Origin: Lacunisphaera sp.
GTDB taxonomy: Bacteria > Verrucomicrobiota > Verrucomicrobiia > Opitutales > Opitutaceae
Length of the DNA: 64,000 nt
Assembly: GCA_029945855.1 (NCBI GenBank)
Contig: JAQSDJ010000324.1
Span: 40,101-104,100, forward strand
Reading direction: 5' to 3'
The notes beneath the pieces were generated by a model. The model was not told the DNA's origin and ran no database searches. It was given only the letters and a program-made list of their open reading frames with translations. A program made the position numbers and the translations under genes. Below, piece after piece: positions 13,227 to 46,649 of this stretch (its first letter is position 1; each line of letters begins with the position of its first letter).

Positions 13227-13300
13227 GCGGCTATAGTTTAATGGTAAAACTCCTGCCTTCCAAGCAGGTATCGTCGGTTCGATTCCGACTAGCCGCTCCA
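13227..13300 (+). tRNA. tRNA-Gly (UCC)
   Basis: GCGGCTATAGTTTAATGGTAAAAC..CCTGC-CTTCCAA-GCAGG..GGTTCGATTCC..AGCCGCTCCA; anticodon TCC. Confidence 0.97.
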
Positions 13301-13487: not shown

Positions 13488-14384
13488 TCAGAGCATGAAA
13501 TAGTTTTCTTCCATCCCGAGGAACCGCCGGCTGGGCGGGGCATAGACCACGCGCCAGACATCCGCGTAACGGGTCCAGGGACCGGGCACGGGACCGTCGT
13601 AGACCAGCTTGAGCTCCGCCGTGGCCCGGGCCGGCGAACGCAGCCGCTCGAGAAACAGCTCATGGCCTTCATCGAGGGCGAAGAACAGGCTGCGGCGCTC
13701 GAGGGGATGCGCCGTGGCGGGCAGTTGGTCGCGGATCCGGCCGGCATGACTGAGGGCGAACCGGGCCACAACCTGCGCATGCCGCTCCATCTCGATCGCC
13801 GCCTTTCCGCAGGCGGTGTCGAAATCCATTGCCGCCCCGTGGCCGTAGGCGACAAAGCCGGCCTCGGTCCGCTTGAAGAGGATCACCGTGATCCCCGGGG
13901 CCGGCGAGCAGATGGTCGCCGCCCGCATGCCGGGCCAGCGGGTTTCGGACTCGCGGGCGGTCAGCCGCCCCTCCCACCAATTCAGCAGGTTGAACCGCTC
14001 GGCTGCCTCCATCAAGGCGACCTGCCGCGCCTGCCGGCGCCACAGACCCGGAAACGCCGCCAGCCCGTTGCTGGACGGGTCGACATCAAAGCCATATTTG
14101 TGGCGTTCGGGGCCTTGATGCATTTCCCAATGGGCCCAACGCTCCATCGCCTCGGAGATGGCCTTGAACCGCGCCACCATGGGCGACGCGTCGGTGCCGC
14201 TGCCGTTCGCCCGGCTGTAGAGCGAATTACCGTCCCGTTTGCCCGCCAGCTCGCCGATGAGATAGGCGTTGGCCAGGAAACGGCGCTCGCCCAGCACCTG
14301 GGTATCCGCGATTTCCAATCTCTCGATCGGACCGCCCGCGGTCACCAGCACATTCCGATAACGATATGCGGCCAGGCTAAGCAC
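13488..14384 (-). CDS. Compact YcaO-like protein
   Basis: GSGT..A..KAISEAMER, SSNGLAA, ALMEAAERF, GHGAAMDFDTACGKAAIEMER and C-terminal RVVYAP match the ordered YcaO motifs; GTG start 16 nt after the peptide ORF. Confidence 0.8.
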   Translation of the reverse strand: MLSLAAYRYRNVLVTAGGPIERLEIADTQVLGERRFLANAYLIGELAGKRDGNSLYSRANGSGTDASPMVARFKAISEAMERWAHWEMHQGPERHKYGFDVDPSSNGLAAFPGLWRRQARQVALMEAAERFNLLNWWEGRLTARESETRWPGMRAATICSPAPGITVILFKRTEAGFVAYGHGAAMDFDTACGKAAIEMERHAQVVARFALSHAGRIRDQLPATAHPLERRSLFFALDEGHELFLERLRSPARATAELKLVYDGPVPGPWTRYADVWRVVYAPPSRRFLGMEENYFML

Positions 14385-14400
14385 GACGGCTCAAGCGGGC

Positions 14401-14589
14401 TTATTGACCGGTCTCGGGCGTGAAGGCGCAGAACATGACGCAGCCTTCGCAAGGTTCGGCCGACACAAGGACCTTGTTCGAAATGCTGCCCTTGTGCATC
14501 GGATCAAATTTTTCCGCGGCGCCGGTGAGGCCGACATTGAGAAGCAGGCTCGAAGCGAGCCCGGTGAGGGTGTTGTTGATTGAGTTCAT
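14401..14589 (-). CDS. 62-aa Cys-rich peptide, candidate RiPP precursor
   Basis: MNSINNTLTGLASSLLLNVGLTGAAEKFDPMHKGSISNKVLVSAEPCEGCVMFCAFTPETGQ; co-directional with and directly upstream of the YcaO-like gene. Confidence 0.65.
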   Translation of the reverse strand: MNSINNTLTGLASSLLLNVGLTGAAEKFDPMHKGSISNKVLVSAEPCEGCVMFCAFTPETGQ

Positions 14590-14637
14590 CGGCGGCAGTA
14601 TCGCGAAAAAGGCCCGCACAACCGATGCGCAAAACCG

Positions 14638-14681
14638 CCTGAAATGGAGGCGATTCAGGTCGGTCACGCGTGTCACGACCT
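14638..14681. promoter_or_regulatory. Candidate operator palindromes in the divergent peptide/kinase promoter
   Basis: CCTGAA-N10-TTCAGG (14638-14659) overlapping AGGTCG-GT-CACGCGTG-TCA-CGACCT (14657-14681). Confidence 0.35.
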
Positions 14682-14748
14682 CACCTAAAGCAAGGTTTCA
14701 GAGAAAGTTGCTGCGGTGCCGCTGATTAAGCTATTTATCAATGATCCA

Positions 14749-17700
14749 GTGAGCACCGCCGTCCACAGCCCCCGAGCCATCTTGCTGGTCGTGTATTTCG
14801 GATTGGCGTGCCCTTCGTTGTTTGGTTCCTGGGTTAACAAGACAACCGGGCTGCCGTTGGTGGAGAATTTTTCCACCAAGGAATTCGGGCTAGGTGAGAC
14901 CAAGTTGGTCGTCCTACAGGATATCTACGGACGACTGTTTGTCGGCGGACAAGGCTTGCAGGTGTTCGACGGGCAGTCGTGGCGAACCTATCCCGTGGGC
15001 GCCGGTTATTCGCTGATGTCCCTGGCATTCGGACAAGGTAACCGGCTATGGGCCGGGGCGGTCAACGAAGTCGGATACTTTGATGAGGAATCCGTGGGAA
15101 CCTTCAAATATCATTCGCTCGCTTTCCGTCTTCCCAAAGAGCAACTGCCCGTGGGGGAAGTCTTCGGCTGCGCTCAGGTCGGACGCGTGGTTTATTTCGT
15201 CTGTCGGGATAAAATCCTGCGCTGGGATGGCGAAGCCTTCCAGGTCCATTCATTCGCGACCAAAAACCGTCTATATCCCATGAGTCTGGGTGATGAATTT
15301 TGGGTTCAACACGTGGAAACCGGGCTGTATCGGCTGACCGAGGAAGGGGCCCAGCTCGAACTCCCGGCGAACGCCCTGCCAATGGCCGGGATACTCGGAC
15401 TGGTCAAAGATGATGGAGGTATCCTGGTTGCGAGCGGCTACGGACTATTCCGGCCGGGAACGCCGCCCCTCCGGATATCCGACGACCCGCTGACCCGGCA
15501 CATTTCGGACAACCGGCTCTCATCCTTTGCCCCCCTGCCGGGCGGCAACTATGCTTTGGGCACGGTCAACGGCGGCTTGGTGATTGCCAGCAAGGATGGG
15601 CGACCCTTGCGAATTTTGGATACCAGCGACGGCTTGCCCGCCCGCTTTGCGTATTCGTTCCAAACTGACGCCAACGGTTATCTTTGGTGTGCCACACCGA
15701 GCGGGATAATGAACCTCGAGGGCTCCGGGCAGGTAAGTGTGTTCAATGCTCTCAACGGATTGAAAGGCAAGGTTGTCCAATTCATCCGACTGCCCGATTC
15801 CAGGTTGTTCGCCATCACGATGGAGGGAGTCTACCAATTATCCGAAACCCAGACAGATGGAGGGCATTTCCAACCATTGCCGCCGCTCACGGCCACCTAC
15901 AAGCACCTGCTGCCGGTGTCCGGCGGCCTGGTGCTGATGCGCCATGGCGGGGTGGACTTTTATAATGGTTCGACGGTGCGGACAATTCTCCACCTCGACG
16001 GCAATGGCGTGTATTTCGCCATGGCCGCCCGGGCCGAACCCAAAACCCTGTTCATCCTTGAGAACAGAGGTTTATCCCGACTGGTGGAACAATCCGATGG
16101 GGCTTATGCCTACGAACATCTGATGAAGCTGCCAGACTTCGTGCAGTCGATGCATGAGGATGCCAACGGCCGGCTCTGGCTCGGCACCATCGGCGAAGGC
16201 GCGTTCATCTACGACCCGGTCGCCAAGCAGCTCTCCCTCCTCAAGCATCCCGAGACGGGGCACCCCATGTCAGGGCCGGTTTCCATCATCGGCACAACCC
16301 AGGGCATTTTGGTTTTTGCCAACGGCCAGGTGCTCAAGGCCGGGAACGACGGATCACACCTGAAGATCTTGAGTGGCACACCCACGATCAATCCGCTGGT
16401 GATAGTCCCGGCTCCCAACGGACAGGATCTGCTGGTCACCTTTCGGCACATCGCCCCCGCCGACGATTCCACGCAAGGCTTGGGCGTGCTGACCGTCGCA
16501 GCGTCAGGGCAGACCCAGTGGCGCGAATTGGACGTGCCGGCGCTAAACACGGTTGGATTCGTGAACACAATTGCATTCACCGAGGAAAACGGACGGCAGA
16601 TTCTCTGGGTGGGCGGCAATAATGGCGCCCTGCGGCTGGATTACGGTGCACTTAACCCGGTGCAAAGCCCCTCCACGCCGTTCATCCGGCTGGATACGCA
16701 GAATGCGGGATTGGTTTCCGATGCGGACGGTTTTTCGTTCCATTTCAAAAGCCATCATCTGAATTTCCATGTCTTCACGGGCGACCATGTCCGAAGCAAG
16801 GACTGGCTGCTGCAGTCGCGCCTGGCCGGCAGCGAATGGTCGGCCCCGGCGGCGCGGCGCGCGTTTGAATTCAGCAACCTGTCCGAGGGTGACTACCGGT
16901 TCGAGGTCCGCACCGTCAACGCCGCCGGCCTGGCCAGCGAGCCCGCCGTGTTCGCCTTTCGCATTTTGCCGCCGTGGTATCGCTCCACCTGGGCCCTGCT
17001 CGGCTACGCCGCGGCGCTCGTCCTGACGGTCCTGGCCGTCATCCGCATCCGCGAGCGCCGGATCCGCGAGCGCAACGAGGAACTGGAGGGCCTCGTCACG
17101 GTCCGCACCGCCGAGCTGGTGAAGGCCAACGCCGCGAAGGACGAATTCCTCGCGGGCATCAGCCACGAGATCCGCAACCCGATGAACGGCGTCATCGGCA
17201 TCGCCGACAATTTCCGCACCGAAAGCCTCGACCCGGAAAGCCGGCGCAAGTTCGGCCTGCTCCGCCAGTGCGCCACGCACCTGTCCTCGCTGCTGGAGGA
17301 CATCCTGGACTTTTCCAAGGTGCAGGCCGGCGCCGTCGAGATTGAGGCCAGGGTTTTCAACCTGCCCGAGCTGATGGACTCGATCACCGCCATGACGGCC
17401 GCCGAGAGCGAGAAGCGCGGCATCCCCGTCGAGATCGCGGTCTCGCCCGCCGTGCCCGCGCTCCTGGTCGGCGATCCCAAGCGCATCCGGCAAATCCTGC
17501 TGAACTTCGTCAGCAACGCCCTGAAGTTCTCCGGGCGCGGCCAGGTGAGTGTCACCGTCTGGTGCAAGCACCTGCAGCCCGGCTCCACGGAGGTCATTTT
17601 CGCGGTATCCGACGAGGGGCCCGGCATCTCGCCGGAGGAACAGCAGCGGCTCTTCACCCGGTTTGAGCGCGGCGCCGCCGCCCAGCAGGGCCGCGTGCCC

Positions 17701-18621
17701 GGCACCGGCCTCGGCCTGGCCCTCTGCAAGGGCCTCGCGGAAAAAATGGGCGGCCGCATCTGGCTGGAAAGCGAACCAGGCCAGGGCTCGTGCTTCTCGT
17801 TCAGCGCGCCCTTTGCAATTGCCGAGCCCGAGGGCGCCCCGGCCGCCGCCGCCGCCCCCGCCGCTCCGGTCCAGCCGAAAGCGGCGCTGGTCGTGGATGA
17901 CCAGGAATACAACCGCATCGTCCTGGCGGACCTGCTCGAGACCCTGGGCTTTGCCGTGCAGAGCGTCGGGGACGGCACCGCCGCGCTCGCGCTGGCCGAG
18001 CGCGAGGACTTCGACGCGGTTTTCCTCGATTTCAACCTGCCCGGCCTGAGCGGCGTGGACGTGGCCCGCGCCATCCGCGCCCTGCCCAACCGGTCTGCCG
18101 CGGCGGTCATCCTCGCGACCACCGCCTTCAGCACGCCGGAAAAACGCAGCCAGTGCCTGGCGGCCGGCATGAACGCCTTCATCGGCAAGCCGGTGACGAT
18201 GGAGCGGCTGCGGAAAGCCCTGGCCGGCACCATGCCCGGCAGCGCGGTGCCGGTCCCCGCGGCGCCCCGTCCGGCCGTTGACGGGCTCGCCAACCTGCGC
18301 CTGCTCGCGCAAAGGAAACAGGCTTCCTTCGCCGAGGAACTGGCGCTCTACCTGTCCGAGCTCGACGTCGATTTCGACCAGCTCCAAGCCGCCGTCCGGG
18401 CGGAAGATTCCACCGGCACCGCCCGTTGCGCCCACTCGCTCTACGGCCGCTGCGCCTTCATCGCCGAGCGGACGCTCGAGCAGGCGCTGCGGGCGGTCGA
18501 GGCGGACGCCGCCACCGGTCACTGGGACGAGGTGCGCCGGCAGCTGGCCCCGCTGTCCGCCCAGGTGGCGGAGCTGCGCGCCCGGCTTACTTCTTCCGCC
18601 CCAACTGCTCCACCCGCGTGA
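14749..18621 (+). CDS. Hybrid sensor histidine kinase (beta-propeller, Y_Y_Y, TM, HisKA, HATPase, REC, HPt)
   Basis: FSNLSEGDYRFEVRTVN (Y_Y_Y), PWYRSTWALLGY TM, SHEIRNPMNG H-box, NALKF/DEGPGI/GTGLGL boxes, VVDD..FLDFNLPG receiver, AHSLYG HPt; start uncertain (14716 or 14749). Confidence 0.92.
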   Translation: MSTAVHSPRAILLVVYFGLACPSLFGSWVNKTTGLPLVENFSTKEFGLGETKLVVLQDIYGRLFVGGQGLQVFDGQSWRTYPVGAGYSLMSLAFGQGNRLWAGAVNEVGYFDEESVGTFKYHSLAFRLPKEQLPVGEVFGCAQVGRVVYFVCRDKILRWDGEAFQVHSFATKNRLYPMSLGDEFWVQHVETGLYRLTEEGAQLELPANALPMAGILGLVKDDGGILVASGYGLFRPGTPPLRISDDPLTRHISDNRLSSFAPLPGGNYALGTVNGGLVIASKDGRPLRILDTSDGLPARFAYSFQTDANGYLWCATPSGIMNLEGSGQVSVFNALNGLKGKVVQFIRLPDSRLFAITMEGVYQLSETQTDGGHFQPLPPLTATYKHLLPVSGGLVLMRHGGVDFYNGSTVRTILHLDGNGVYFAMAARAEPKTLFILENRGLSRLVEQSDGAYAYEHLMKLPDFVQSMHEDANGRLWLGTIGEGAFIYDPVAKQLSLLKHPETGHPMSGPVSIIGTTQGILVFANGQVLKAGNDGSHLKILSGTPTINPLVIVPAPNGQDLLVTFRHIAPADDSTQGLGVLTVAASGQTQWRELDVPALNTVGFVNTIAFTEENGRQILWVGGNNGALRLDYGALNPVQSPSTPFIRLDTQNAGLVSDADGFSFHFKSHHLNFHVFTGDHVRSKDWLLQSRLAGSEWSAPAARRAFEFSNLSEGDYRFEVRTVNAAGLASEPAVFAFRILPPWYRSTWALLGYAAALVLTVLAVIRIRERRIRERNEELEGLVTVRTAELVKANAAKDEFLAGISHEIRNPMNGVIGIADNFRTESLDPESRRKFGLLRQCATHLSSLLEDILDFSKVQAGAVEIEARVFNLPELMDSITAMTAAESEKRGIPVEIAVSPAVPALLVGDPKRIRQILLNFVSNALKFSGRGQVSVTVWCKHLQPGSTEVIFAVSDEGPGISPEEQQRLFTRFERGAAAQQGRVPGTGLGLALCKGLAEKMGGRIWLESEPGQGSCFSFSAPFAIAEPEGAPAAAAAPAAPVQPKAALVVDDQEYNRIVLADLLETLGFAVQSVGDGTAALALAEREDFDAVFLDFNLPGLSGVDVARAIRALPNRSAAAVILATTAFSTPEKRSQCLAAGMNAFIGKPVTMERLRKALAGTMPGSAVPVPAAPRPAVDGLANLRLLAQRKQASFAEELALYLSELDVDFDQLQAAVRAEDSTGTARCAHSLYGRCAFIAERTLEQALRAVEADAATGHWDEVRRQLAPLSAQVAELRARLTSSAPTAPPA

Positions 18622-19279
18622 GGCCGTTGACGATGGCGTAGTGGATCAGCTTCGGCGTCGTGTGGACGTCGAGCTTGGTCATGATGTCGCGGCGCCGCGA
18701 CTGCACCGTGGCGGGGCTGATGTTCAGCACCGTGGCGATCTCCTCGTCGGTCTTGGATTCGCCGATCATCGAAAGGATGCGGGTCTCGTAGTCGGACAGC
18801 ACACGGATAAACGCCTTGGGGTCGCGGCGGATGCTGGCGCTCGATTCGTTCACGATCGGGGTGTAATAGACACGGCCCGCGAGCACCGCGTGGATCGCCT
18901 CCGTCAGCACCTCCCGGCGCTGCTCGTTCTTGTCCACGAAGCCGTGCAGCCCGATCCGCTGCACCTGCAGCATCGTCCACGGGTCGCGGTGCGAGGAGAT
19001 GGCGAGGATCTTCACCTCGGGCAGCTCGTCGAGGATGGTCTTCGCCAGCTCCAGCCCATCGCCATCGGGCAGCGAGATGTCCAGCAGCACCAGGTCCGAG
19101 CGCTGCGCGCGGATGGCGGCCAGCCCCTCCCGGCAGGTGCCGCAGAGCTGCACCACCTCGAGCCCGAGGTCCCGGCAGTGGAAGTTGAGGAATTCCGCCA
19201 CCAACCGCTGGTCCTCCACCACAATCACGCGGCCGAGACTCGGTCGGTCTCCAATTCCATTTCCGGATTGTGGCTCCAT
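18587..19279 (-). CDS. NarL/LuxR-family response regulator
   Basis: VIVVEDQ..LVLLDISLPDGDG receiver; LSDYETRIL..EIATVLNISPATVQSRRRDIMTKLDV HTH. Confidence 0.93.
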   Translation of the reverse strand: MEPQSGNGIGDRPSLGRVIVVEDQRLVAEFLNFHCRDLGLEVVQLCGTCREGLAAIRAQRSDLVLLDISLPDGDGLELAKTILDELPEVKILAISSHRDPWTMLQVQRIGLHGFVDKNEQRREVLTEAIHAVLAGRVYYTPIVNESSASIRRDPKAFIRVLSDYETRILSMIGESKTDEEIATVLNISPATVQSRRRDIMTKLDVHTTPKLIHYAIVNGLTRVEQLGRKK

Positions 19280-19401
19280 GGTATTGGCTCGTCTCATTGC
19301 ATCGGGGCGCGCAAAAGATATTTCAACGCATGGCGCCACCGGGGGATTTCTCTTCCCCGCGGCTTGCTTCATGTTGTTGTTTTTGGCCCGGATTGCTCAC
19401 G

Positions 19402-32261: not shown

Positions 32262-33062
32262 CTACAAATGCGCCTTGAGATCATGCACGAAGGTGCGGCT
32301 GACCTTCAGTTTGGCGCCATTCGTCAGCTCCACCGTGTATTCGCCATAAAGCGCGGGGCTGGCCTTCTTCATGTGCCGGAGGTTGACGATCGTCGAACGG
32401 TGGATGCGCACAAAATGCGCCGGGTCGAGCTTCTCCAGCATCCGGTGCAGCGACATGCGGACGAAGCGCGACTTGTCGGTCGAGTGCAACCGCACGTAGT
32501 CGCCGTCCGACTCGATCCACAGGATGTCCCCGGGGGCCATCACGTGGATCTCGCCGTCGCAGCGGATGAAGAGGCGGCCGTCGCCCTCGCGCGGCTTGGG
32601 GGCGGCCTCCGCATCGGCGCGCAGGCGCTGCATCGCCGCCATGACCTCGTCGAGCCGCCGGGCCAACCCCTGGCGATCGTGGTCGCGCACCGCGGCCTTG
32701 GCCCGGCTCAGCGCCTCGGCGAAGCGGGCGCGGTGGAAGGGCTTGAGCACATAATCCACCGCCTGCACCTCGAAGGCCCGCAGCGCGAAATGATCATAGG
32801 CGGTGACGAACACGACGTGGGGCAGCAGCTTGGCGGGAATTTTTCCCAGCACATCGAAGCCGGTCAGGCCGGGCATCTGCACGTCGAGAAAGAGGAGGTC
32901 GGGCTGGAGCTGCTTGATGGCTTCGACCGCCTGGGCACCGGTGCCACACTGGGCGACGATCTGGATCTCGGGGTCGGACTTGAGCAGGGCCTCGACGTTT
33001 TCGCGGGCGAGCACCTCGTCGTCGACGATGAGGGTGCGAATGGTGGCAGTTGTGGTGTTCAT
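32262..33062 (-). CDS. LytTR-family response regulator
   Basis: LIVDDE..LFLDVQMPG..FVTAYD..VLKP receiver; FVRIHRSTIVN LytTR domain. Confidence 0.96.
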   Translation of the reverse strand: MNTTTATIRTLIVDDEVLARENVEALLKSDPEIQIVAQCGTGAQAVEAIKQLQPDLLFLDVQMPGLTGFDVLGKIPAKLLPHVVFVTAYDHFALRAFEVQAVDYVLKPFHRARFAEALSRAKAAVRDHDRQGLARRLDEVMAAMQRLRADAEAAPKPREGDGRLFIRCDGEIHVMAPGDILWIESDGDYVRLHSTDKSRFVRMSLHRMLEKLDPAHFVRIHRSTIVNLRHMKKASPALYGEYTVELTNGAKLKVSRTFVHDLKAHL

Positions 33063-34198
33063 GGGGAAACGGTCTGGAAAGGCAGGATGATCTCGGCGCG
33101 CACGCCGTGCGGGGCTTGGTCGCGCAGCCGGAGGCGGGCGTCGTCGCCATAAAGCATCTGCAACCGGGTGACCGTGCTCTGCACGCCGATGCCACGGGCG
33201 AGCTCGGCGTCATCCTTCGGCAGCGGCGGCCCGTCGTTGTAGACGGTCAGGAGCAGGCGCGTGCCGTCGCGGGCCGCGCTGATGCGCAGGACGCGGGCGG
33301 CGGGATCCTTGGAAATGCCATGCTTCATGGCATTCTCCACCAGCGGCTGCAGGATCAGGCCCGGCACCTGGGCGGCCAGGCACTGCGGCGCGATGTCGAA
33401 CTCGACCCGCAGGCGGTCCTGGAAGCGGATGCTCTCGATGTCGAGATAGCGGTGGAGGAATTCCAGCTCGTGCTCGAGGGTCACGCGGGCCTCCTGCTTG
33501 TGGTCGAGCGAGCGGCGCAGCAGCTCCCCCAGCCCGGCGACCACATCCTCGGCCTCGCGGGTGCGATGGTTGCGGATCAGGCTGGTGATGGAGTTGAGCG
33601 TGTTGAACAGGAAATGCGGATGCAGCTGCATCTTCAGGGCGTCGAGGCTGGCGCGCACCAGCCGGGTCTCGAGCTGGGCATTGGCGACCCGCAAGGCGCC
33701 GGTCAGCCGCTGGCCGGCCCGCCACTCCCGATAAAAGCTGAAGGCATACAGGGCGAAGATCAGGAGCAGATAGACGAGGGCCGGCGTATAGTTCCAGCCT
33801 CCCAGCCAGCGTAGATCCTGCACCATCACGGGCAGGTAGCCGGCCGGCAGGTGGTTCGCCAGCAGCATCCGGCCACCGGCCAGAATGATGAACAGGCCGG
33901 TGATGAGCACCGCCGTGAGCCCGTGTAAGATGACCGCCCAGGGCCAGCGTCGGTCCACCAACGACAGATTTTTCTGCAGCCACAGGCCGGCCGGAACCAG
34001 CACCCACCAGAGGGCCGACAGCGGCCAGCTGTTCAGCTTGGTGTCGCGAAAACTGGCCTGGGGCTCGCCGGCCAGCCAGGGCCAGGCATCCCCCAGCAGG
34101 ACCGCGCCCAAGCCGATGGTGCCCGCCAGCCAGACCGAAAGCCAGATCCGCCCGTCGCGCCACCAAAGGACCGGGTCGATGCTGTCGCCGTTGGTCAT
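33059..34198 (-). CDS. LytS/YehU-type membrane histidine kinase
   Basis: Several TM helices, LKMQLHPHFLFNTLNSI, LQPLVENAMKHG; ATGA overlaps at both ends. Confidence 0.93.
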   Translation of the reverse strand: MTNGDSIDPVLWWRDGRIWLSVWLAGTIGLGAVLLGDAWPWLAGEPQASFRDTKLNSWPLSALWWVLVPAGLWLQKNLSLVDRRWPWAVILHGLTAVLITGLFIILAGGRMLLANHLPAGYLPVMVQDLRWLGGWNYTPALVYLLLIFALYAFSFYREWRAGQRLTGALRVANAQLETRLVRASLDALKMQLHPHFLFNTLNSITSLIRNHRTREAEDVVAGLGELLRRSLDHKQEARVTLEHELEFLHRYLDIESIRFQDRLRVEFDIAPQCLAAQVPGLILQPLVENAMKHGISKDPAARVLRISAARDGTRLLLTVYNDGPPLPKDDAELARGIGVQSTVTRLQMLYGDDARLRLRDQAPHGVRAEIILPFQTVSP

Positions 34199-35847
34199 AG
34201 CCGGGGGCCCGGATTGGAGTTCATCGTCGCGGTCGTTTCCAGCCGGAGTCGTTTGAGCGACTGGCGGGCCAGCGGGTCGGCATACCAACCCTGCACCTCG
34301 GCGGCCAGCAGGGCTTGTCTTTGCTCGAACATCATCGGCACCGCCGGCACGGCCTCCATGGCCAGCCTCTCCGCCTTTTCCAGCAGACTGAGCCGCTCGG
34401 CCCCGGTCTTGCGGTTGGCTTCGTTCATGAGCCGGGCAAACTCCTTGTCGCTCCACTTGGTCTCGCTGTATTCGGCCGGCCAGAGGAAACCGCTCAGCAG
34501 GTCGCCGGCATCCGGGACGGTGGCGATCAGGTTGCCATAGAGCACATCGTATTCGCCGATGGGGGTCATGCGTTGGGCCCGCACGGAGGCCGGTTCGTAG
34601 ATGATATGGGTGCGCACCCCGAGTTCCCGATACCAGCGTTCGGTCCAGTCGGGGGGATAGGGATCCGGCTTCATCCAGAGCGGCAGCGACATTTCCAAGA
34701 TCGGAAACCCCCGGCCAGCCGGGTATCCCGCGTCCGCCAGCAGACGCCGCGCCTCCTCGCCATCCTCCCGCAACAGCACCAATCCGGTGCGACCGGGCAT
34801 GTCCGGCACCCAAGACCAGGCCGGCGTCATCCGGCCGGGATTGAACCTGGCAATGGGACCCGCGCGGTCCAGCGCCAGCGCCAGCGCCTGGCGCACCCGG
34901 ACATCCCGCAAGGGTCCGCGGTTCACGTTGAAAGCGATCGAATTCACCGCCAGCACCAACTCGGTCTCTTTGCGAACCGCACGGTTGGTGGGCGACGGCC
35001 GGTCCTCCCCTAGCGCAGGCGAGACCACGTCCACCACCCCCGCCGCCAGCAGCAATGGCGCCACCGACGTGTTCGCCCGGATGAAACGAACGCCCGCGAG
35101 CCGGACTTCGGCGCGGCCATGATAATACGGGGAGGCCTGCAGGCGGTAGCCCGTGGCATTGGCTTCGCGCAGGCAGAACGGGCCGTTGGTCACCAGGCTC
35201 CCCGGATCGTCGACATAGGCGTTGCCGGCCAGGGCCTGCGCGCCGTCACGATGCAAGGGGGCCAGCAACGGGTCGGCCAGTTCCGCCACCAAGGTGGACC
35301 GGACCTGGGCCAGCTCCAACCGCAGGGTGAGCAGGTCGATCGCCTTCACCCCGATTTGCTCGGGATCCGTCATGGTCTGCCGGTGGAAGGCCTCGGCGTT
35401 CTTGAGCGCGAACAGCGTCTGGGCCACATCCATGCGCTGGCGCAACAACCGCCGCCAGCCGCGCTCGAAGTCCTGCGCTGTCACCGCGTCCCCGTTGCTC
35501 CAGCGCGCGTCGGCCCGCAGCTTCAGGGTCAGCGCCAAGCGGTCCGGTGACCACGACCAGCTCTCCGCCGCTGCCGGCCGCGGCTCGCCCGTGGCCGGAT
35601 CGCATTCCACCAAGGGCTCCCACAGGCAGAGGATGAAATGATTGTGCGCCGAGACCGGAAAGGTCCGCTGATGCGGGTCGGGCAGCAGTTTCTGGGCATA
35701 GGCGACCCGCAGCACGTCGGCCTCCTCCGGAGGACGCGGCAAGACCGGTAGCGACTGTCTCGGCCCCAGAAAAATCATCGCCATCAACCCGCCCAGCGAC
35801 AGCAAAGCCAGGCTGATCCACCAATGGAGGCGGGGGGTCGTAGTCAT
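34195..35847 (-). CDS. OppA-like family 5 solute-binding protein, N-terminal membrane anchor
   Basis: LWEPLVECD..PAAAESWSWS..LKLRADARWSNGDAVTAQDF signature; RVRQALALALDR; no lipobox seen. Confidence 0.9.
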   Translation of the reverse strand: MTTTPRLHWWISLALLSLGGLMAMIFLGPRQSLPVLPRPPEEADVLRVAYAQKLLPDPHQRTFPVSAHNHFILCLWEPLVECDPATGEPRPAAAESWSWSPDRLALTLKLRADARWSNGDAVTAQDFERGWRRLLRQRMDVAQTLFALKNAEAFHRQTMTDPEQIGVKAIDLLTLRLELAQVRSTLVAELADPLLAPLHRDGAQALAGNAYVDDPGSLVTNGPFCLREANATGYRLQASPYYHGRAEVRLAGVRFIRANTSVAPLLLAAGVVDVVSPALGEDRPSPTNRAVRKETELVLAVNSIAFNVNRGPLRDVRVRQALALALDRAGPIARFNPGRMTPAWSWVPDMPGRTGLVLLREDGEEARRLLADAGYPAGRGFPILEMSLPLWMKPDPYPPDWTERWYRELGVRTHIIYEPASVRAQRMTPIGEYDVLYGNLIATVPDAGDLLSGFLWPAEYSETKWSDKEFARLMNEANRKTGAERLSLLEKAERLAMEAVPAVPMMFEQRQALLAAEVQGWYADPLARQSLKRLRLETTATMNSNPGPRL

Positions 35848-36018
35848 GGTGTTACGCCGGTAGTAATCCCGGTTCCCGAGCCAAGGCAATGCGCCGTTGC
35901 ACCACAACCCGGGTGCGCTCCGGCTCCACGCCGGCGCGACGAAGCGCCAAAAACGAGCGCCCAGACCCACCGTGGCGGTGTGACTGGGCGCGAACTTTCG
36001 CCGATCCGGCGCGGGGAC

Positions 36019-42127: not shown

Positions 42128-43585
42128 TCACCCGGCGTCCGTCACCAGGAAGTTCTTGAACTGCCACGGATCCTTCCGGTCGAGGTCGGGCTTGTGGTAA
42201 CCGTCGAAGGTCGTGTCGCGGCTCTGCAGCGGGGTCCAGTCCGAGGGCGTGGAGATCCACTTGCCGAGGTAGGGCTTCGCGATCTTGAGGATGTAATCAT
42301 GCGGCAGCTCGTCGGCGACGACGACCCCCTGCTCGGGATTTTCGATCATCCACATCGACGCGGCGACGACGGAAATGGCGACCTGCATGGTGGTGGCGTT
42401 CTGGTGCGGGACCAGGCGGCGGGATTCCTCGATGCTGAGATCGGAGCCGACCCACCACGAGTTGTAGTCGTGGCCCATGATCAGCGCGCCGAGGATGTCG
42501 GAACCCTTGGTGATCTCGTCGTTCATGATGCGCTGGTTCTCGACGAGGCGGTAGTTGTAGCCACGCATCTCGTTGAGCGAGGCGATGGCCTCGTCGCAGG
42601 GGCAATAGGCGTAATGCATCGTCGGGCGGTAGACGGCCTTGCCGTTCTTCCAGACCGTGAGCTTGTCGGAGATGGTGAAGGCCTCGCCGTGGCGGACGAC
42701 CATGCCGAGGATGTTGTAGTTGGGCACCCAGGTGCGGACCCAGGTGTTCATGCCCATGCGGGCGAGACAGATCTGGTTGCGCGGCCCTTCCGTGTGCTCG
42801 AAGGCGTGCGCCGGGAGCGTCTTCTCGTGCGTGCCCCAGCCCATTTCGGCGGTCGTGGTGCCTTCCTCGCGGAAGCCCTCGATGCTCCAGGTGTTCACGA
42901 ACTCGTCCACTTCCTTCGGCTGGTTCGTGATCTGGGTGTCGCGCTCGGAGCAGTGGATGACCTTCACCCCCAAGGTGTGCGCGAGGTGGTTGAACTGGCG
43001 GGTCGCGATGAGGCCGGCGATCTTCTCGGCTTTCTTGCCCGCGGCCTTCCCGTCCTTGATGAGCTTGTGGCCGATGTCGATGAGGCCCTGCTTGACGAAA
43101 TGGGAGATGAGGCCGGGGTTGGCGCCGTGCTCGATGACGGCGGACGGGCCCTTGGTCTGCCACTTGGCGGTCATCCGCCGCAGGTTCATGTGGCGGTAAT
43201 AAAGCGTCTTCTTGGTCGGATGGGCGTTGGCGCCGTGCGCGTAGGGATCCCAGAGCTCGGTCGAGGTGTTGATATACTTCACGCCGTGGTCGTGGCACCA
43301 CTGGAGGATCTCGCAGGCGTCGATGTTCCAGGCGAGGTCGATGAGCAGGTCGCCGGGGCCGACATGCTTCGCGAGCAACGCGCCCATGTTGGCCTCGGTC
43401 ACGCGGTCGCGCACATAACGGACACCCTGCTTGATCCAAGGCGCGAGCTTGGCCTTGCGATCCGCAAAATCCATCACCGTGACATTCTTCGCCGGCACCT
43501 GGAGGTGCTTGAAGAGAATGGGCAGGGTGCATTCGGCCACGGCGCCGTAGCCGACGAACAGGATCTTGTTGGGGAATTTGAGCAT
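42128..43585 (-). CDS. hss: Homospermidine synthase
   Basis: Rossmann GYGAV, HGANPGLISHF, NTWSIEGF, HGEAFTIS, YRPTMHYAYCPCD, QNATTMQV. Confidence 0.93.
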   Translation of the reverse strand: MLKFPNKILFVGYGAVAECTLPILFKHLQVPAKNVTVMDFADRKAKLAPWIKQGVRYVRDRVTEANMGALLAKHVGPGDLLIDLAWNIDACEILQWCHDHGVKYINTSTELWDPYAHGANAHPTKKTLYYRHMNLRRMTAKWQTKGPSAVIEHGANPGLISHFVKQGLIDIGHKLIKDGKAAGKKAEKIAGLIATRQFNHLAHTLGVKVIHCSERDTQITNQPKEVDEFVNTWSIEGFREEGTTTAEMGWGTHEKTLPAHAFEHTEGPRNQICLARMGMNTWVRTWVPNYNILGMVVRHGEAFTISDKLTVWKNGKAVYRPTMHYAYCPCDEAIASLNEMRGYNYRLVENQRIMNDEITKGSDILGALIMGHDYNSWWVGSDLSIEESRRLVPHQNATTMQVAISVVAASMWMIENPEQGVVVADELPHDYILKIAKPYLGKWISTPSDWTPLQSRDTTFDGYHKPDLDRKDPWQFKNFLVTDAG

Positions 43586-43750
43586 GATTTGTGACGAGGT
43601 GTTGCGGAGATAACGACAGGCGCGCGCGCAAATGAAACGGCGTCCCGTCAAATTATTTGTGAGGAAATGTGGGGGCGATTCGCGGGCGACTGCAAGCGAT
43701 TATTGAGTGACAAACCGGTGGCGGACGGAGCCCACAACAGATCGGTTGAG

Positions 43751-43811
43751 GTGGGTCGGGCTTTACGCCCGACATGAAGCCGCGACCTGTCGGGGATAAA
43801 CCCCGACCTAC
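43751..43811. repeat. REP-like doublet, GTAGGTCGGG family
   Basis: GTGGGTCGGGCTTTACGCCCGACA and inverted TGTCGGGGATAAACCCCGACCTAC between argJ and hss. Confidence 0.8.
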
Positions 43812-43828
43812 AAAACTCCGCCCTCGCT

Positions 43829-45061
43829 TCACTCGCTCTTGTTGTAGTTCACGTAACCCTCGGTGAGGTCGCTCGCGAGCAGGCGGAACGTCGCCTTCCC
43901 GAGGTGGAGGTTCAGTGTGATGGTGAAGCGGCGGGCCTTCACGATCTCCTTCCACTTCGGCTTGAGCTCGGGATGCGGCTTGCCGGCGGTCATTGCCGGC
44001 GTGTCGTTGTAAAGGATGTCCAGCTTGGCCTCGACCAGCTTGGCGCCCGCGTAGCCGGCGGCGTCGGCCAGGCGGCCCCAGTTCGGGTCCTCGCCATACC
44101 AGGAGGATTTTACCAGCAGCGAGTTGCCGATGGCGCGGGCCACCTTCTCGGCGTCCTCGGCGGAAGCCGCGCCGTTGATCCGGAGCTCGACCACCTTGGT
44201 GATCTTCTCACCGTCGGAGACGATCTTCTCGGCCAGCGCCTCGCAGGCCTTCCAGACCGCCTCGGCGAACAGCACGCGCAGCTCGCGCGGACTCTTGTCG
44301 CCGACGCTGACGCCGGAGTGGCCGTTGGCCAGCATGAGCACAGTGTCGTTGGTGCTCATGTCGCCGTCCACGGTGATGCAGTTGAAGGTGCCGGCGACGG
44401 CCTCGGAGAGCGTCTTTTGGAGGAAGCTGCGCGGCACGGAGAAATCCGTCGCGAGGAACGCCAGCATGGTGGCCATGTTGGGCTGGATCATGCCCGCGCC
44501 CTTGGCGATGCCGGAGACGAAGTGCTTCTTGCCGTCGTAGGTGAAGCTCACCGTGACGGTCTTCGCCCGGGTGTCGGAGGTCAGGATGGCGTCGGCGGCC
44601 TGCTTGCCGTGCGCGGGGGTGCGGCCTTTCTCGCTGACCGCGCGCTCGAGGCCCTTGAGGAGCCGGGGCATCGGCATCGGCTGGCCGATGCGACCGGTCG
44701 AGCACACGAAGAACGAGGCAGGCTTGAAGTTGAGCGAGGCGGCGGCGCGCTGCGCGGTCAGCTGGGCGTCGCGCAGGCCGTCGGGGCCGGTGCAGGCGTT
44801 GGCGTTGCCGGAGTTGGCGATGATGCCGTGGAACGGCCCGCCCTCGGCGAGGTGCTTCTGGTCGAGCAGCACCGGGGCGGCCTTGACGGCGTTGGTCGTG
44901 AAGGTGCCGGCGGCGGTGCAGGGACGCAGGGAGAAGATCAACGCGAGGTCGAGGCGCTTGAGGTCGTGCTTCTCACGGATGTCGCAGGGCACGCCGGCGC
45001 ATTCGAAGCCGGGCACATCGGTGAGGCCGGCGCTATCCAGGGTAACGGTGAGTTGGGTCAT
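43829..45061 (-). CDS. argJ: Bifunctional ornithine acetyltransferase / acetylglutamate synthase
   Basis: NSGNANACTG, CSTGRIG, KGAGMIQPNMATML, DGDMSTND, DPNWGR. Confidence 0.97.
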   Translation of the reverse strand: MTQLTVTLDSAGLTDVPGFECAGVPCDIREKHDLKRLDLALIFSLRPCTAAGTFTTNAVKAAPVLLDQKHLAEGGPFHGIIANSGNANACTGPDGLRDAQLTAQRAAASLNFKPASFFVCSTGRIGQPMPMPRLLKGLERAVSEKGRTPAHGKQAADAILTSDTRAKTVTVSFTYDGKKHFVSGIAKGAGMIQPNMATMLAFLATDFSVPRSFLQKTLSEAVAGTFNCITVDGDMSTNDTVLMLANGHSGVSVGDKSPRELRVLFAEAVWKACEALAEKIVSDGEKITKVVELRINGAASAEDAEKVARAIGNSLLVKSSWYGEDPNWGRLADAAGYAGAKLVEAKLDILYNDTPAMTAGKPHPELKPKWKEIVKARRFTITLNLHLGKATFRLLASDLTEGYVNYNKSE

Positions 45062-45098
45062 TGAGGGGAAAGGGTCCGGCGCGGCGCGCCGGACGGCA

Positions 45099-46130
45099 TC
45101 AGGCGAGCCCGGCGGTCTCAGGGAAGCCGCACCAGAGGTTCATGATCTGGACGGCCTGGCCGCTGGCGCCCTTCATGAGGTTGTCGACCGCGGAGGTGAT
45201 CACGAAGTTGCCCGTCCGGGCGTCGTGGACGGCGGAGATGTCCACCCGGTTGGTGCCGGTGACATGGGCGGTGTCGGGCGTCTCGCCGGTGGGCAAAATC
45301 GCGACGAAGGGCCGGCTGGCGTAGGTCGCGCGCCAGGCCGCGTAGAGCGACTCGATGGTGGCGCCTTTCGCCGCGGGCACGGTGATGGTGGTGGCGATGC
45401 CGCGGCGCATCGGCGCGAGGTGCGGGTTGAACTGCACGATGATTGGCGCGCCGGCGGCGAGGGAAAGCTGTTCCTCGATCTCGGAGATATGCCGGTGCTT
45501 CAGCAGGCCGTAGGCCTTGGCGCTCTCGGTGCGCTCGACGTAGAGATACATCTCGTCGAGTTTCTTGCCGGCGCCGCTGACGCCACTGAAGGAGTTCACG
45601 ACAATGTGTTCGCGCGCGACAACGCCGGCCCGGAGCAGCGGCACAAGCGGCACGAGGGTGCTGGTCGGGTAGCAGCCGGGGGCGGCGGCGAGCTTGATCT
45701 CGGACTTCCACTTGGGATCCGTCAGCTCGGGCAGGACGAAGCGCGCCGAGGGCAGCAACCCGGGCGCGTGGTGCGCGCCGTAGTATTTCTCGTAGGTGGC
45801 GAGGTCGGCCACGCGGAAGTCGGCACTGAGGTCGATGACCTTGCGGCCGGCCGGCACGAGGGCCTGCGCGAAGTCGGCGGCGGCACCGTGCGGCAGGGCC
45901 AGGAACCACACGTCGATGTCCTTGCGCGCCGCGAGGGCGGCGGCGTCGGAGTCGATGAACCTGAGCTGCTCGGCCGCGGTCCCGCGCAGGGCCGGGATCA
46001 GGGAAGCGAGCGGCTTGCCCGCATGCTGGCGGGAGGTGACCGCGGTCAGTTTGACCTGCGGATGACCGAGGAGGAGCTTGACCAGAACTTCGCCGGAGTA
46101 ACCCGACGCGCCGACGATGCCGACATTCAT
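45099..46130 (-). CDS. argC: N-acetyl-gamma-glutamyl-phosphate reductase
   Basis: VGASGYSG, LALPHG, DLSADFR, PGCYPT, SGVSGAG, DNLMKGASGQA. Confidence 0.98.
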   Translation of the reverse strand: MNVGIVGASGYSGEVLVKLLLGHPQVKLTAVTSRQHAGKPLASLIPALRGTAAEQLRFIDSDAAALAARKDIDVWFLALPHGAAADFAQALVPAGRKVIDLSADFRVADLATYEKYYGAHHAPGLLPSARFVLPELTDPKWKSEIKLAAAPGCYPTSTLVPLVPLLRAGVVAREHIVVNSFSGVSGAGKKLDEMYLYVERTESAKAYGLLKHRHISEIEEQLSLAAGAPIIVQFNPHLAPMRRGIATTITVPAAKGATIESLYAAWRATYASRPFVAILPTGETPDTAHVTGTNRVDISAVHDARTGNFVITSAVDNLMKGASGQAVQIMNLWCGFPETAGLA

Positions 46131-46188
46131 TTCAGGGAGCGGTAGAATTATGAATTCCCCGGGGGGAATCGAGAAGTTTCGTGAGGAC

Positions 46189-46223
46189 AAAAAAGAAGCG
46201 GAGGCCGTGGGGCGCTCCGCTTC
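46189..46223 (-). terminator. Intrinsic terminator after rpsI
   Basis: GAAGCGGAG...CTCCGCTTC stem followed by a T-tract on the minus strand. Confidence 0.8.
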
Positions 46224-46246
46224 GGGTGAGTCGTGATCCAGTCCGG

Positions 46247-46649
<403 letters not shown>

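Follow-up and report, generated by a model that had tools for sequence, protein, structure and literature searches.

Quorum sensing by modified peptides is textbook knowledge in Gram-positive bacteria and almost unknown in diderms. The comQXPA system of Bacillus subtilis (ComX) and the staphylococcal agrBDCA system each encode a precursor, a modifying enzyme, a membrane histidine kinase and a response regulator. Both com and agr are auto-regulated from their own promoter region, the regulator ComA is of the NarL/LuxR type, and polymorphism is found in the peptide and the sensor part of the kinase, with a conserved transmitter and regulator. A four-gene block of like composition is described here from Lacunisphaera sp. 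(Opitutaceae, Verrucomicrobiota), in a 64,000-nucleotide stretch of assembly GCA_029945855.1 (contig JAQSDJ010000324.1, positions 40,101 to 104,100 of the forward strand), which is termed the window and numbered from its first letter. The block includes: (i) a 62-residue precursor peptide, (ii) a 298-residue protein that appears to be a minimal member of the YcaO superfamily (mini-YcaO), (iii) a hybrid sensor histidine kinase and (iv) a LuxR/NarL-family response regulator, which are encoded together and co-inherited as in agr/comQXPA. The reading tentatively favored is an auto-inducing loop, in which a YcaO-modified, Sec-exported peptide would be read by the adjacent kinase and the peptide/sensor alleles would represent pherotypes.

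The logic of the cassette is closest to that of comQXPA/agr and of nisin-type auto-induction, and differs in maturase, export route, receptor and host envelope. As in com/agr, the sensor is variable and the transmitter and regulator are conserved. By contrast, the apparent maturase is of the YcaO superfamily rather than an isoprenyl transferase or membrane peptidase, the precursor has a Sec-like leader and no dedicated exporter, the putative receptor is a 715-residue periplasmic double propeller rather than a set of polytopic membrane helices, and the hosts are diderm bacteria (Opitutales and Bdellovibrionota). In the nisin (NisRK) and subtilin (SpaRK) systems, the two-component system of a cluster senses that cluster's own modified ribosomal peptide and induces the cluster (cited in PMC10352776). 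Such lantibiotic clusters carry transporter, protease and immunity genes and produce an antibiotic peptide, whereas the block described here is without those genes.

Stand-alone YcaO enzymes without an E1-like or Ocin-ThiF partner are known from bottromycin (BotC/BotCD) and streptamidine biosynthesis (PMC8442711). Compared to these partner-less YcaOs, the mini-YcaO is about 100 residues shorter, is marginal for the Pfam model, is missed by Foldseek and resides in a cluster without other tailoring genes. Trifolitoxin has one thiazoline, formed from Gly-Cys near its C-terminus (PMC8816728), and this single site is reminiscent of the lone conserved Cys that most precursor cores described here have close to their end. 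Sec-type signal peptides take the place of classical leaders in the bufferins/oxazolins, are termed highly unusual for bacterial RiPPs (peptides made on the ribosome and modified after translation), and are proven as RiPP leaders only for the bufferins (PMC12452194). Similarly to the bufferins, the precursors have a leader that resembles a Sec signal peptide, in most cases a Cys-containing core and a presumed periplasmic site of action. The bufferin enzyme, however, is an MNIO with a DUF2063 partner and not of the YcaO superfamily, the bufferin cores are conserved metal-binding motifs and not hypervariable, and the bufferin clusters are without the linked hypervariable kinase that is present here.

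The sensor resembles those of the Bacteroides hybrid two-component systems (HTCS) BT4663, BT3049 and BT4673 in its two beta-propellers and Y_Y_Y domain, with a sequence identity of only 16%. While the Bacteroides HTCS have a fused AraC-type output and an adjoining polysaccharide-utilization locus, the kinase described here has an Hpt domain, a separate LuxR regulator, no fused AraC domain and no such locus. Unlike in the Bacteroides HTCS, its sensor domain is hypervariable between close relatives. A literature search pairing YcaO with Verrucomicrobia, Opitutus, Bdellovibrio, histidine kinase, quorum sensing or Sec signal peptide gave no description of the module in the papers searched; likewise, the first-pass annotation, a model's reading of the letters of the window, had known of no described system of this composition.

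Gene Organization and Distribution of the Module

The precursor gene (14401-14589, minus strand; identified by a leader hidden Markov model (HMM) and codon pattern) encodes 62 residues counted from the ATG and ends 16 nucleotides before the start of the mini-YcaO open reading frame (ORF; 13488-14384, minus strand; Pfam YcaO), the two forming one operon. The mini-YcaO is cytoplasmic and without a partner domain. A divergent promoter region (14590-14715), which has conserved blocks in an alignment of 23 close loci, is common to this operon and to the kinase gene (14716-18621, plus strand; 1301 residues; Pfam and NCBIfam). The response regulator (18587-19372, minus strand; REC and GerE helix-turn-helix; Pfam and NCBIfam) overlaps the kinase tail-to-tail by 35 nucleotides; its true start is probably 19279, since homolog alignments begin at residues 11-47. 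A tRNA-Gly(tcc) (13227-13300, plus strand; ARAGORN and Rfam) forms one boundary of the insertion site of the module, and the flanks are unrelated to the block, namely rsmE at one end, and pilC/T2SS-F with a sigma54-type regulator at the opposite end.

These ORF, Pfam and tRNA calls agree with the first-pass annotation in the four genes, their coordinates, their order and the self-contained nature of the block. As also claimed there, the genes inspected in the block include no transporter, protease or dehydrogenase, nor is there an E1-like/ThiF or TfuA gene; TfuA (PF07812) was not found anywhere in the whole genome, and the tRNA is the sole match of an Rfam scan of the block. No immunity, transporter or polysaccharide-utilization gene was noted in any locus examined. 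A classical azole/azoline antibiotic cluster was considered and rejected, as dehydrogenase, partner, transporter and immunity genes are all missing at every locus.

Distribution was surveyed in 41 genomes of relatives, in GTDB species genomes (315 loci, of which the best 80 were examined) and in an evenly drawn sample of 401 genomes of the phylum. The four-gene synteny search that had been proposed in the first-pass annotation gave consistent linkage: 18 of the 41 relatives carry the YcaO gene, with the divergent kinase in 18/18 and the regulator wherever the contig reaches, and no locus without the kinase was found among the best 80 of the 315 GTDB loci where at least 2 kb of upstream sequence is available. 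Peptide, YcaO and orthologous kinase are all absent from 22/41 relatives, and a sensor-domain search detected the orthologous kinase in every carrier with contigs long enough. One 4-kb contig labeled Eisenbacteria aside (see below), the best 80 GTDB loci are by their record names of Opitutales (Lacunisphaera, Oleiharenicola, Opitutus and Didemnitutus, including the cultured Oleiharenicola lentus); other cultured carriers are Cerasicoccus arenae and Coraliomargarita sp. In the phylum sample, the family is present in 31/401 genomes, and all 31 are Opitutales. Chance juxtaposition does not account for the arrangement. Other families of the order retain the YcaO-kinase pair with the regulator at varying positions, which argues for selection and not frozen synteny.

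The tRNA site is found in three states. Beside the full module, the receptor genes alone are observed in G009 (L166, G009:C1:1004000-1016000), where kinase and regulator reside between tRNA-Gly and rsmE next to a degenerate remnant of the promoter palindrome, and the site is empty in G016 (L168, G016:C41), where rsmE directly follows tRNA-Gly. Thus, the module is an accessory unit at a tRNA site. A 4-kb contig binned as 'Candidatus Eisenbacteria' (L042, JAWXBZ010000149.1) has a module with a YcaO 77% identical to that of the window and a Lacunisphaera-type precursor, and is probably a mis-binned contig of Opitutaceae.

Precursor Peptide

The precursor is composed of a leader (MNSINNTLTGLASSLLLNVGLTGAAEKFDPM; 14497-14589, minus strand) and a variable tail with three Cys residues (...AEPCEGCVMFCAFTPETGQ; 14404-14496, minus strand). 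In 79/81 loci, the ORF immediately upstream of YcaO is matched by the leader HMM as a homolog, and the two loci without a match have less than 170 nucleotides of upstream sequence each. The spacing between precursor and YcaO genes is 0-90 nucleotides, at times with overlap, in these 79 loci and likewise in a second phylum (see below). The precursors have in common M-(K/N)-x-I.., then hydrophobic residues (..SSLLL..VG[LF]) and A-[EQD]-x-[LF]-D-P, followed by a hypervariable tail of 20-40 residues. Cys is present in 76 of 87 Opitutales tails, as C-x-[FWY] in 48 and often as P-C-x-aromatic; no residue of the tails is universally conserved. One clade has two tandem precursor genes. In L105 (1285-1840), about 550 nucleotides with an unrelated 103-residue ORF separate two precursor genes from the YcaO gene, compared to about 90 nucleotides in sister loci.

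Codon differences between precursors amount to 790 synonymous versus 359 non-synonymous. Pairs with identical leaders have 1-6 synonymous codon differences and no non-synonymous ones, and the leader codons of the near-identical pair L106/L112 are identical. In L059, L061, L067, L074 and L093, the core is present as 2-5 tandem units that are identical in protein and differ synonymously only; e.g., SSAFSELPCQFS occurs five times in L067, with synonymous variation at 10/12 codons. Translation of the small ORF is supported by this synonymous/non-synonymous pattern and by the synonymous-only core repeats, and the precursor is judged on these codon patterns to be a real gene with its leader under purifying selection. 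The tandem cores are often preceded by K/R, and the core unit is uniform within a genome and differs between genomes. As the tandem cores are identical in protein and varied by synonymous codons, the unit of about 10-13 residues is the selected product, with purifying selection acting on the repeated cores as well. L061 and L067 are two contigs of the metagenome-assembled genome GL140_5_metabat_305 (G010), which thus has two complete modules, with the cores 3x AFTETVCNF and 5x SSAFSELPCQFS.

By simple heuristic criteria (n-region, h-region and small residues in the expected cleavage area), the leader resembles a Sec signal peptide. K/R is near the N-terminus in 74/87 leaders, D/E is absent from the first 22 residues in 85/87, the mean best 12-residue hydropathy is 2.1, and a small-x-small cleavage motif is present in 55/87. 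A Sec-like leader could explain the lack of an exporter and protease, and renders plausible the export without a transporter of its own that had been proposed in the first-pass annotation.

Mini-YcaO Enzyme

The mini-YcaO of the window matches the Pfam YcaO model (PF02624) with 27.3 bits versus a cut-off of 25.7, a marginal and partial match to HMM positions 111-181 only, and NCBIfam gives only a weak SagD-type match. The family comprises 420 clusters at 50% identity, nearly all of 285-310 residues. The Pfam YcaO model is matched by 86 of 96 diverse family members (E <= 0.01; best E 2e-12), with co-linear pieces of the models (HMM 2-33 and 110-234, and TIGR03604 186-277) matched by different members. 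When aligned by hhalign to E. coli YcaO, SSNGLAAF..EAAER is placed opposite SNGMSAG..EVFER (probability 45%, E 2e-4), E126/E129/R130 are paired with E199/E202/R203, and K194/E198 with R286/E290. Conservation in the 96 sequences is complete or at least 90% at S77, E78, E81, R82, E126, E129, R130 and E198. The first ATP/Mg motif (SEAMER; E. coli E75/E78) was placed by inspection and by the match of one member to HMM 2-33. An AlphaFold2 (AF2) model of the protein has a predicted local distance difference test (pLDDT) score of 96.5. Thus, the mini-YcaO apparently belongs to the YcaO superfamily as a minimal and remote member whose ATP/Mg site appears intact. The name YcaO in the first-pass annotation holds in that the motifs align and the Pfam score is above the cut-off; it applies only in a remote sense, as Foldseek gave no YcaO fold. 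A genome-scale search of the same genome with the Pfam YcaO model misses the mini-YcaO gene and detects no other YcaO, and tblastn against plasmids gave no match.

Azoline-forming YcaO enzymes, i.e., those of thiazole/oxazole-modified microcins (TOMM), linear azol(in)e-containing peptides (LAP) and cyanobactins, are marked by a Pro-rich PxPxP C-terminus, an E1-like/Ocin-ThiF partner or fused RiPP recognition element (RRE) and often a flavin dehydrogenase. PVPGP is found in the mini-YcaO at residues 265-269, some 30 residues short of the C-terminus, where only G268 and W270 are invariant across the wider family. An E1-like/Ocin-ThiF partner and fused RRE are absent from the block and from distant loci, the protein being a bare 298-residue domain. 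Since thioamide-forming YcaO enzymes that are TfuA-independent exist, thioamidation is also possible despite the lack of TfuA.

Sensor Kinase and Promoter

The kinase has Reg_prop, Y_Y_Y, HisKA, HATPase_c, REC and Hpt domains (Pfam). Hydrophobic segments at residues 21-40 and 757-779 flank residues 41-756, which are therefore predicted to be periplasmic. This sensor domain (14836-16983, plus strand) is a double beta-propeller with Y_Y_Y by AF2 and Foldseek, and is hypervariable and of lower G+C. The AF2 model of residues 41-760 has a pLDDT of 90.2 and matches BT4663, BT3049 and BT4673 (4a2l, 3v9f and 3ott) by Foldseek with E ~1e-27 and a template modeling (TM) score of up to 0.73, which confirms the beta-propeller/Y_Y_Y sensor described in the first-pass annotation. 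The cytoplasmic phosphorelay part (17134-18579, plus strand) is composed of HisKA (17134-17331), HATPase_c (17470-17817), REC (17887-18222) and Hpt (18340-18579), all on the plus strand and detected by Pfam. The kinase is not an HTCS proper because it has no AraC output, an Hpt domain is present, the regulator is separate and there is no nearby polysaccharide-utilization locus; SusC/D-like and glycoside hydrolase genes are not found in the block.

The divergent promoter region includes a palindrome, ACCT-N6-AGGT (14683-14696; consensus CACCTnnnnTTAGGTG; CACCT-N6-AGGTG), about 100 nucleotides upstream of the peptide ATG. The palindrome is conserved in 23/23 aligned loci, and just two copies of its core pattern ACCTNNNNTTAGGT are present in the 5-Mb genome; the palindrome is a candidate operator of the LuxR-type regulator. 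A scan of the block for consensus sigma70 promoters found none. A short hairpin followed by a T-run (14613-14633, minus strand) is located about 25 nucleotides upstream of the peptide start codon, in a block conserved among close relatives (AGGyyyTTTT...).

The second genomic copy of the palindrome (ACCT-N4-TTAGGT) is just upstream of hlyD (L147 2502-2515), at a cluster of HlyD, ATP-binding cassette (ABC) and double-glycine-leader peptide genes. A palindrome regulon is not claimed, as a reversed control pattern was likewise matched once genome-wide. This cluster (G000:C67 ~43500-46250; L147 936-3636, minus strand) has an ABC ATPase and an HlyD-family gene, then a 91-residue ORF with a double-glycine-type leader (MKELNILELTVIDGG|YIGPDG...), and looks like a class-II bacteriocin or pheromone export cluster.

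Sensor Hypervariability and Mosaic Alleles

Compared to close relatives, identity is 38-50% in the sensor, 73-83% in the kinase core, 68-84% in the YcaO and 70-87% in the regulator. The G+C content drops from about 70% to 56-60% across the sensor and peptide gene; the lower-G+C block (window 14400-16800; 55-60%) extends over peptide gene, promoter and the part of the kinase gene that encodes the sensor, and is flanked by the YcaO gene (65-69%) and the kinase core (~70%). Between L045 and L048, nucleotide identity is 85-95% in the regulator, kinase core, leader/promoter, YcaO and pilC, falls to 46-65% in the sensor and dips in the peptide core. Over their full length, about ten control pairs of orthologous kinases from these two genomes have mostly 80-100% identity. 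In L061/L067, the transmitter is 91-98% identical, with a sharp break near the second transmembrane segment to about 50% over sensor and peptide, and 65% in the YcaO; at the protein level, the transmitter is 97%, the sensor 45% and the YcaO 65% identical. L061 and L067 are either paralogs with gene conversion or two co-occurring strains that were binned together.

Among 23 locus pairs with kinase cores at least 85% identical, which are non-independent, similarity of the peptide core tracks sensor identity best (Spearman 0.76) compared to YcaO identity (0.58).

The Module in Bdellovibrionota

Distant members of the mini-YcaO family (33-45% identity) are found on AT-rich contigs, some of which are named Pseudobdellovibrio or Bacteriovorax. 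The gene order there is a leader-homologous small ORF, an exported family-5 solute-binding protein and, directly after, the mini-YcaO. The link to the binding protein holds in 6/6 loci where its gene is visible. The Bdellovibrionota leader has MKK, a hydrophobic stretch and VGLxK[LIF]ADx[IF]D, often with Lys at the -3 position, and the tails are Gly/Asn-rich and often without Cys. That the peptide-YcaO pair is linked independently to kinases and to a binding protein of the peptide type provides the strongest comparative case for periplasmic perception of the product.

The window itself has an orphan family-5 binding protein (591 residues) upstream of a LytS-like kinase and LytTR regulator (32262-35970, minus strand). 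This OppA-like protein (34195-35970) was rejected as a counterpart of the YcaO-linked binding proteins of Bdellovibrionota, as the similarity is only generic to the family (24% over 144 residues).

Proposed Mechanism and Alternative Explanations

In the auto-inducing loop, the inferred biochemical steps (modification, export, binding and regulation) would proceed as follows. The 62-residue precursor would be translated, and the partner-less cytoplasmic mini-YcaO would recognize the leader (the hydrophobic stretch followed by G-[LF]..A-[EQD]-x-[LF]-D) and, at the expense of ATP, activate one of the backbone amides of the variable C-terminal core, with a thiazoline as the most likely product where Cys is present. 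The leader would double as a Sec signal peptide, such that the Sec pathway and signal peptidase would stand in for a dedicated exporter and protease, and further trimming of the core by housekeeping proteases may follow. Once in the periplasm or released, the peptide would be read by the hypervariable double-propeller domain of the neighboring kinase, and the HisKA-REC-Hpt phosphorelay would activate the LuxR-type regulator. The regulator, in turn, would bind the conserved palindrome in the divergent promoter and drive both operons, giving auto-induction and strain-specific peptide/receptor pairs (pherotypes). A broader generalization, which is doubtful, is that a family of strain-specific peptide pheromones exists in diderms (Opitutales and Bdellovibrionota), with minimal partner-less YcaO maturation, general Sec export and periplasmic reading by either a BT4663-type double-propeller kinase, which would then be a peptide and not a glycan receptor, or an orphan family-5 binding protein coupled to a kinase, and with recombining peptide/sensor alleles as pherotypes.

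A number of findings weigh against the auto-inducing loop. The assignment of the enzyme to YcaO rests on marginal HMM scores: a Foldseek search of the mini-YcaO model against the PDB gave nothing at E <= 0.001 and no YcaO among the top 50, the top matches being weak and resembling double-stranded RNA-binding domains, and a search of the family profile against PDB sequences found no YcaO and nothing relevant. For the sensor of the kinase, Foldseek performed well. Cys is missing from 11/87 Opitutales precursors and from most precursors of Bdellovibrionota. The only solved relatives of the sensor are the Bacteroides hybrid two-component sensors, and glycan is to our knowledge the only known ligand of this fold (BT4663, a heparin sensor), which forms the main indirect argument against peptide sensing. 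G009, a complete genome of the same genus, is the sole clear non-carrier with the kinase and is without a trace of peptide and YcaO; thus, the kinase can persist without its supposed ligand. Occurrence of the YcaO-peptide pair independently of the kinase, an outcome considered in the first-pass annotation, was not observed in Opitutales loci with sufficient flanking sequence; in Bdellovibrionota, however, a histidine kinase is adjacent in 3/6 loci and not in the other 3/6, and the kinase link is therefore not absolute.

The co-variation of peptide and sensor, which had also been proposed as a check, is of mixed outcome. The peptide core does track the sensor in the 23 locus pairs, but L045/L048 and L052/L056 are partial counter-examples, with sensors 42-54% identical and cores only moderately different. 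By partial Mantel tests, the core correlates with the sensor (r 0.22-0.34, significant) and the leader does so as well (r 0.36-0.41). As the leader tracks the sensor equally well, the partial Mantel result was rejected as specific evidence, and the signal may reflect shared descent or evolutionary rate. Specific co-evolution and shared descent are not told apart by the co-variation tests. The maturase of agr and comQXP co-varies with its peptide, whereas here this is not always so, as the L045 and L048 alleles have YcaOs that are 94% identical. On the whole, the interpretation of the first-pass annotation is partly supported, i.e., in composition, synteny and some peptide/sensor co-variation.

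A narrower role of the two-component system, rather unlikely, is that it only regulates production: the kinase would sense an external cue (glycan, envelope or metal stress) and switch on a YcaO-made periplasmic or secreted peptide with another job, such as an antimicrobial, a bufferin-like metal binder or a surface-active factor. Regulatory two-component systems occur in many RiPP clusters, the sensor is matched in fold by BT4663, BT3049 and BT4673, G009 has kinase and regulator with neither peptide nor YcaO, and the co-variation tests are non-specific. The bufferins, moreover, are Sec-leader, Cys-containing RiPPs that act in the periplasm (PMC12452194). A fixed cue, however, does not explain the ~50% nucleotide identity of the sensor where the other kinases of the genomes are 80-100% identical, and leaves the sharp mosaic breakpoints unexplained. 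The lack of an immunity, transporter or polysaccharide-utilization gene at any locus also speaks against this role, and the binding protein that is added in the Bdellovibrionota version is of the peptide type. Tandem cores that are identical within a genome and hypervariable from one genome to another are more in line with a specific signal than with a metal binder.

The same co-diversification of peptide and sensor would be explained equally well if the peptide were a cis-acting modulator, i.e., an uncleaved signal anchor in the inner membrane or a periplasm-retained peptide that binds the same cell's sensor through its modified tail and acts as a feedback connector, similarly to MgrB, a small membrane protein that acts on PhoQ. 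Strict co-expression from the divergent promoter is possible, the small-x-small motif is present in just 55/87 leaders, and the -3 residue is often Lys in Bdellovibrionota. Such a modulator is nonetheless improbable, as the multi-core precursors (2-5 identical units, often with K/R before them) suggest release of several small peptides and the orphan receptor of G009 makes more sense with a ligand from other cells. Most improbable is that the small ORF is not the substrate, and that the mini-YcaO modifies another protein or is a catalytically inert scaffold in the signaling pathway. YcaO enzymes do act on proteins (e.g., E. coli YcaO with RimO on S12, and archaeal YcaO on McrA), and the remote homology without a fold match by Foldseek or profile search, the absence of an RRE or partner protein and the lack of a universally conserved tail residue would be in line with this. 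Against it, the precursor gene is 0-90 nucleotides upstream of YcaO in 79/81 loci and in a second phylum, and the 96 diverse members show little or no variation at the Mg/ATP-binding Glu/Arg positions.

Biological Significance

If the auto-inducing loop were true, YcaO would represent a new type of maturase for signaling peptides and a second enzyme class with Sec signal peptides as RiPP leaders, and a peptide ligand would be added to a sensor fold so far tied to glycans. The carriers in culture (Oleiharenicola lentus, Cerasicoccus arenae and Coraliomargarita sp.) make the question directly testable. Even when viewed conservatively, an uncharacterized family of minimal YcaO proteins of about 300 residues (420 clusters, 315 GTDB loci) is described together with a matching precursor family. 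For the organisms, the loop would mean that a pherotype system is present in Verrucomicrobiota that are abundant and poorly studied in soil and freshwater, and in the predatory Bdellovibrionota.

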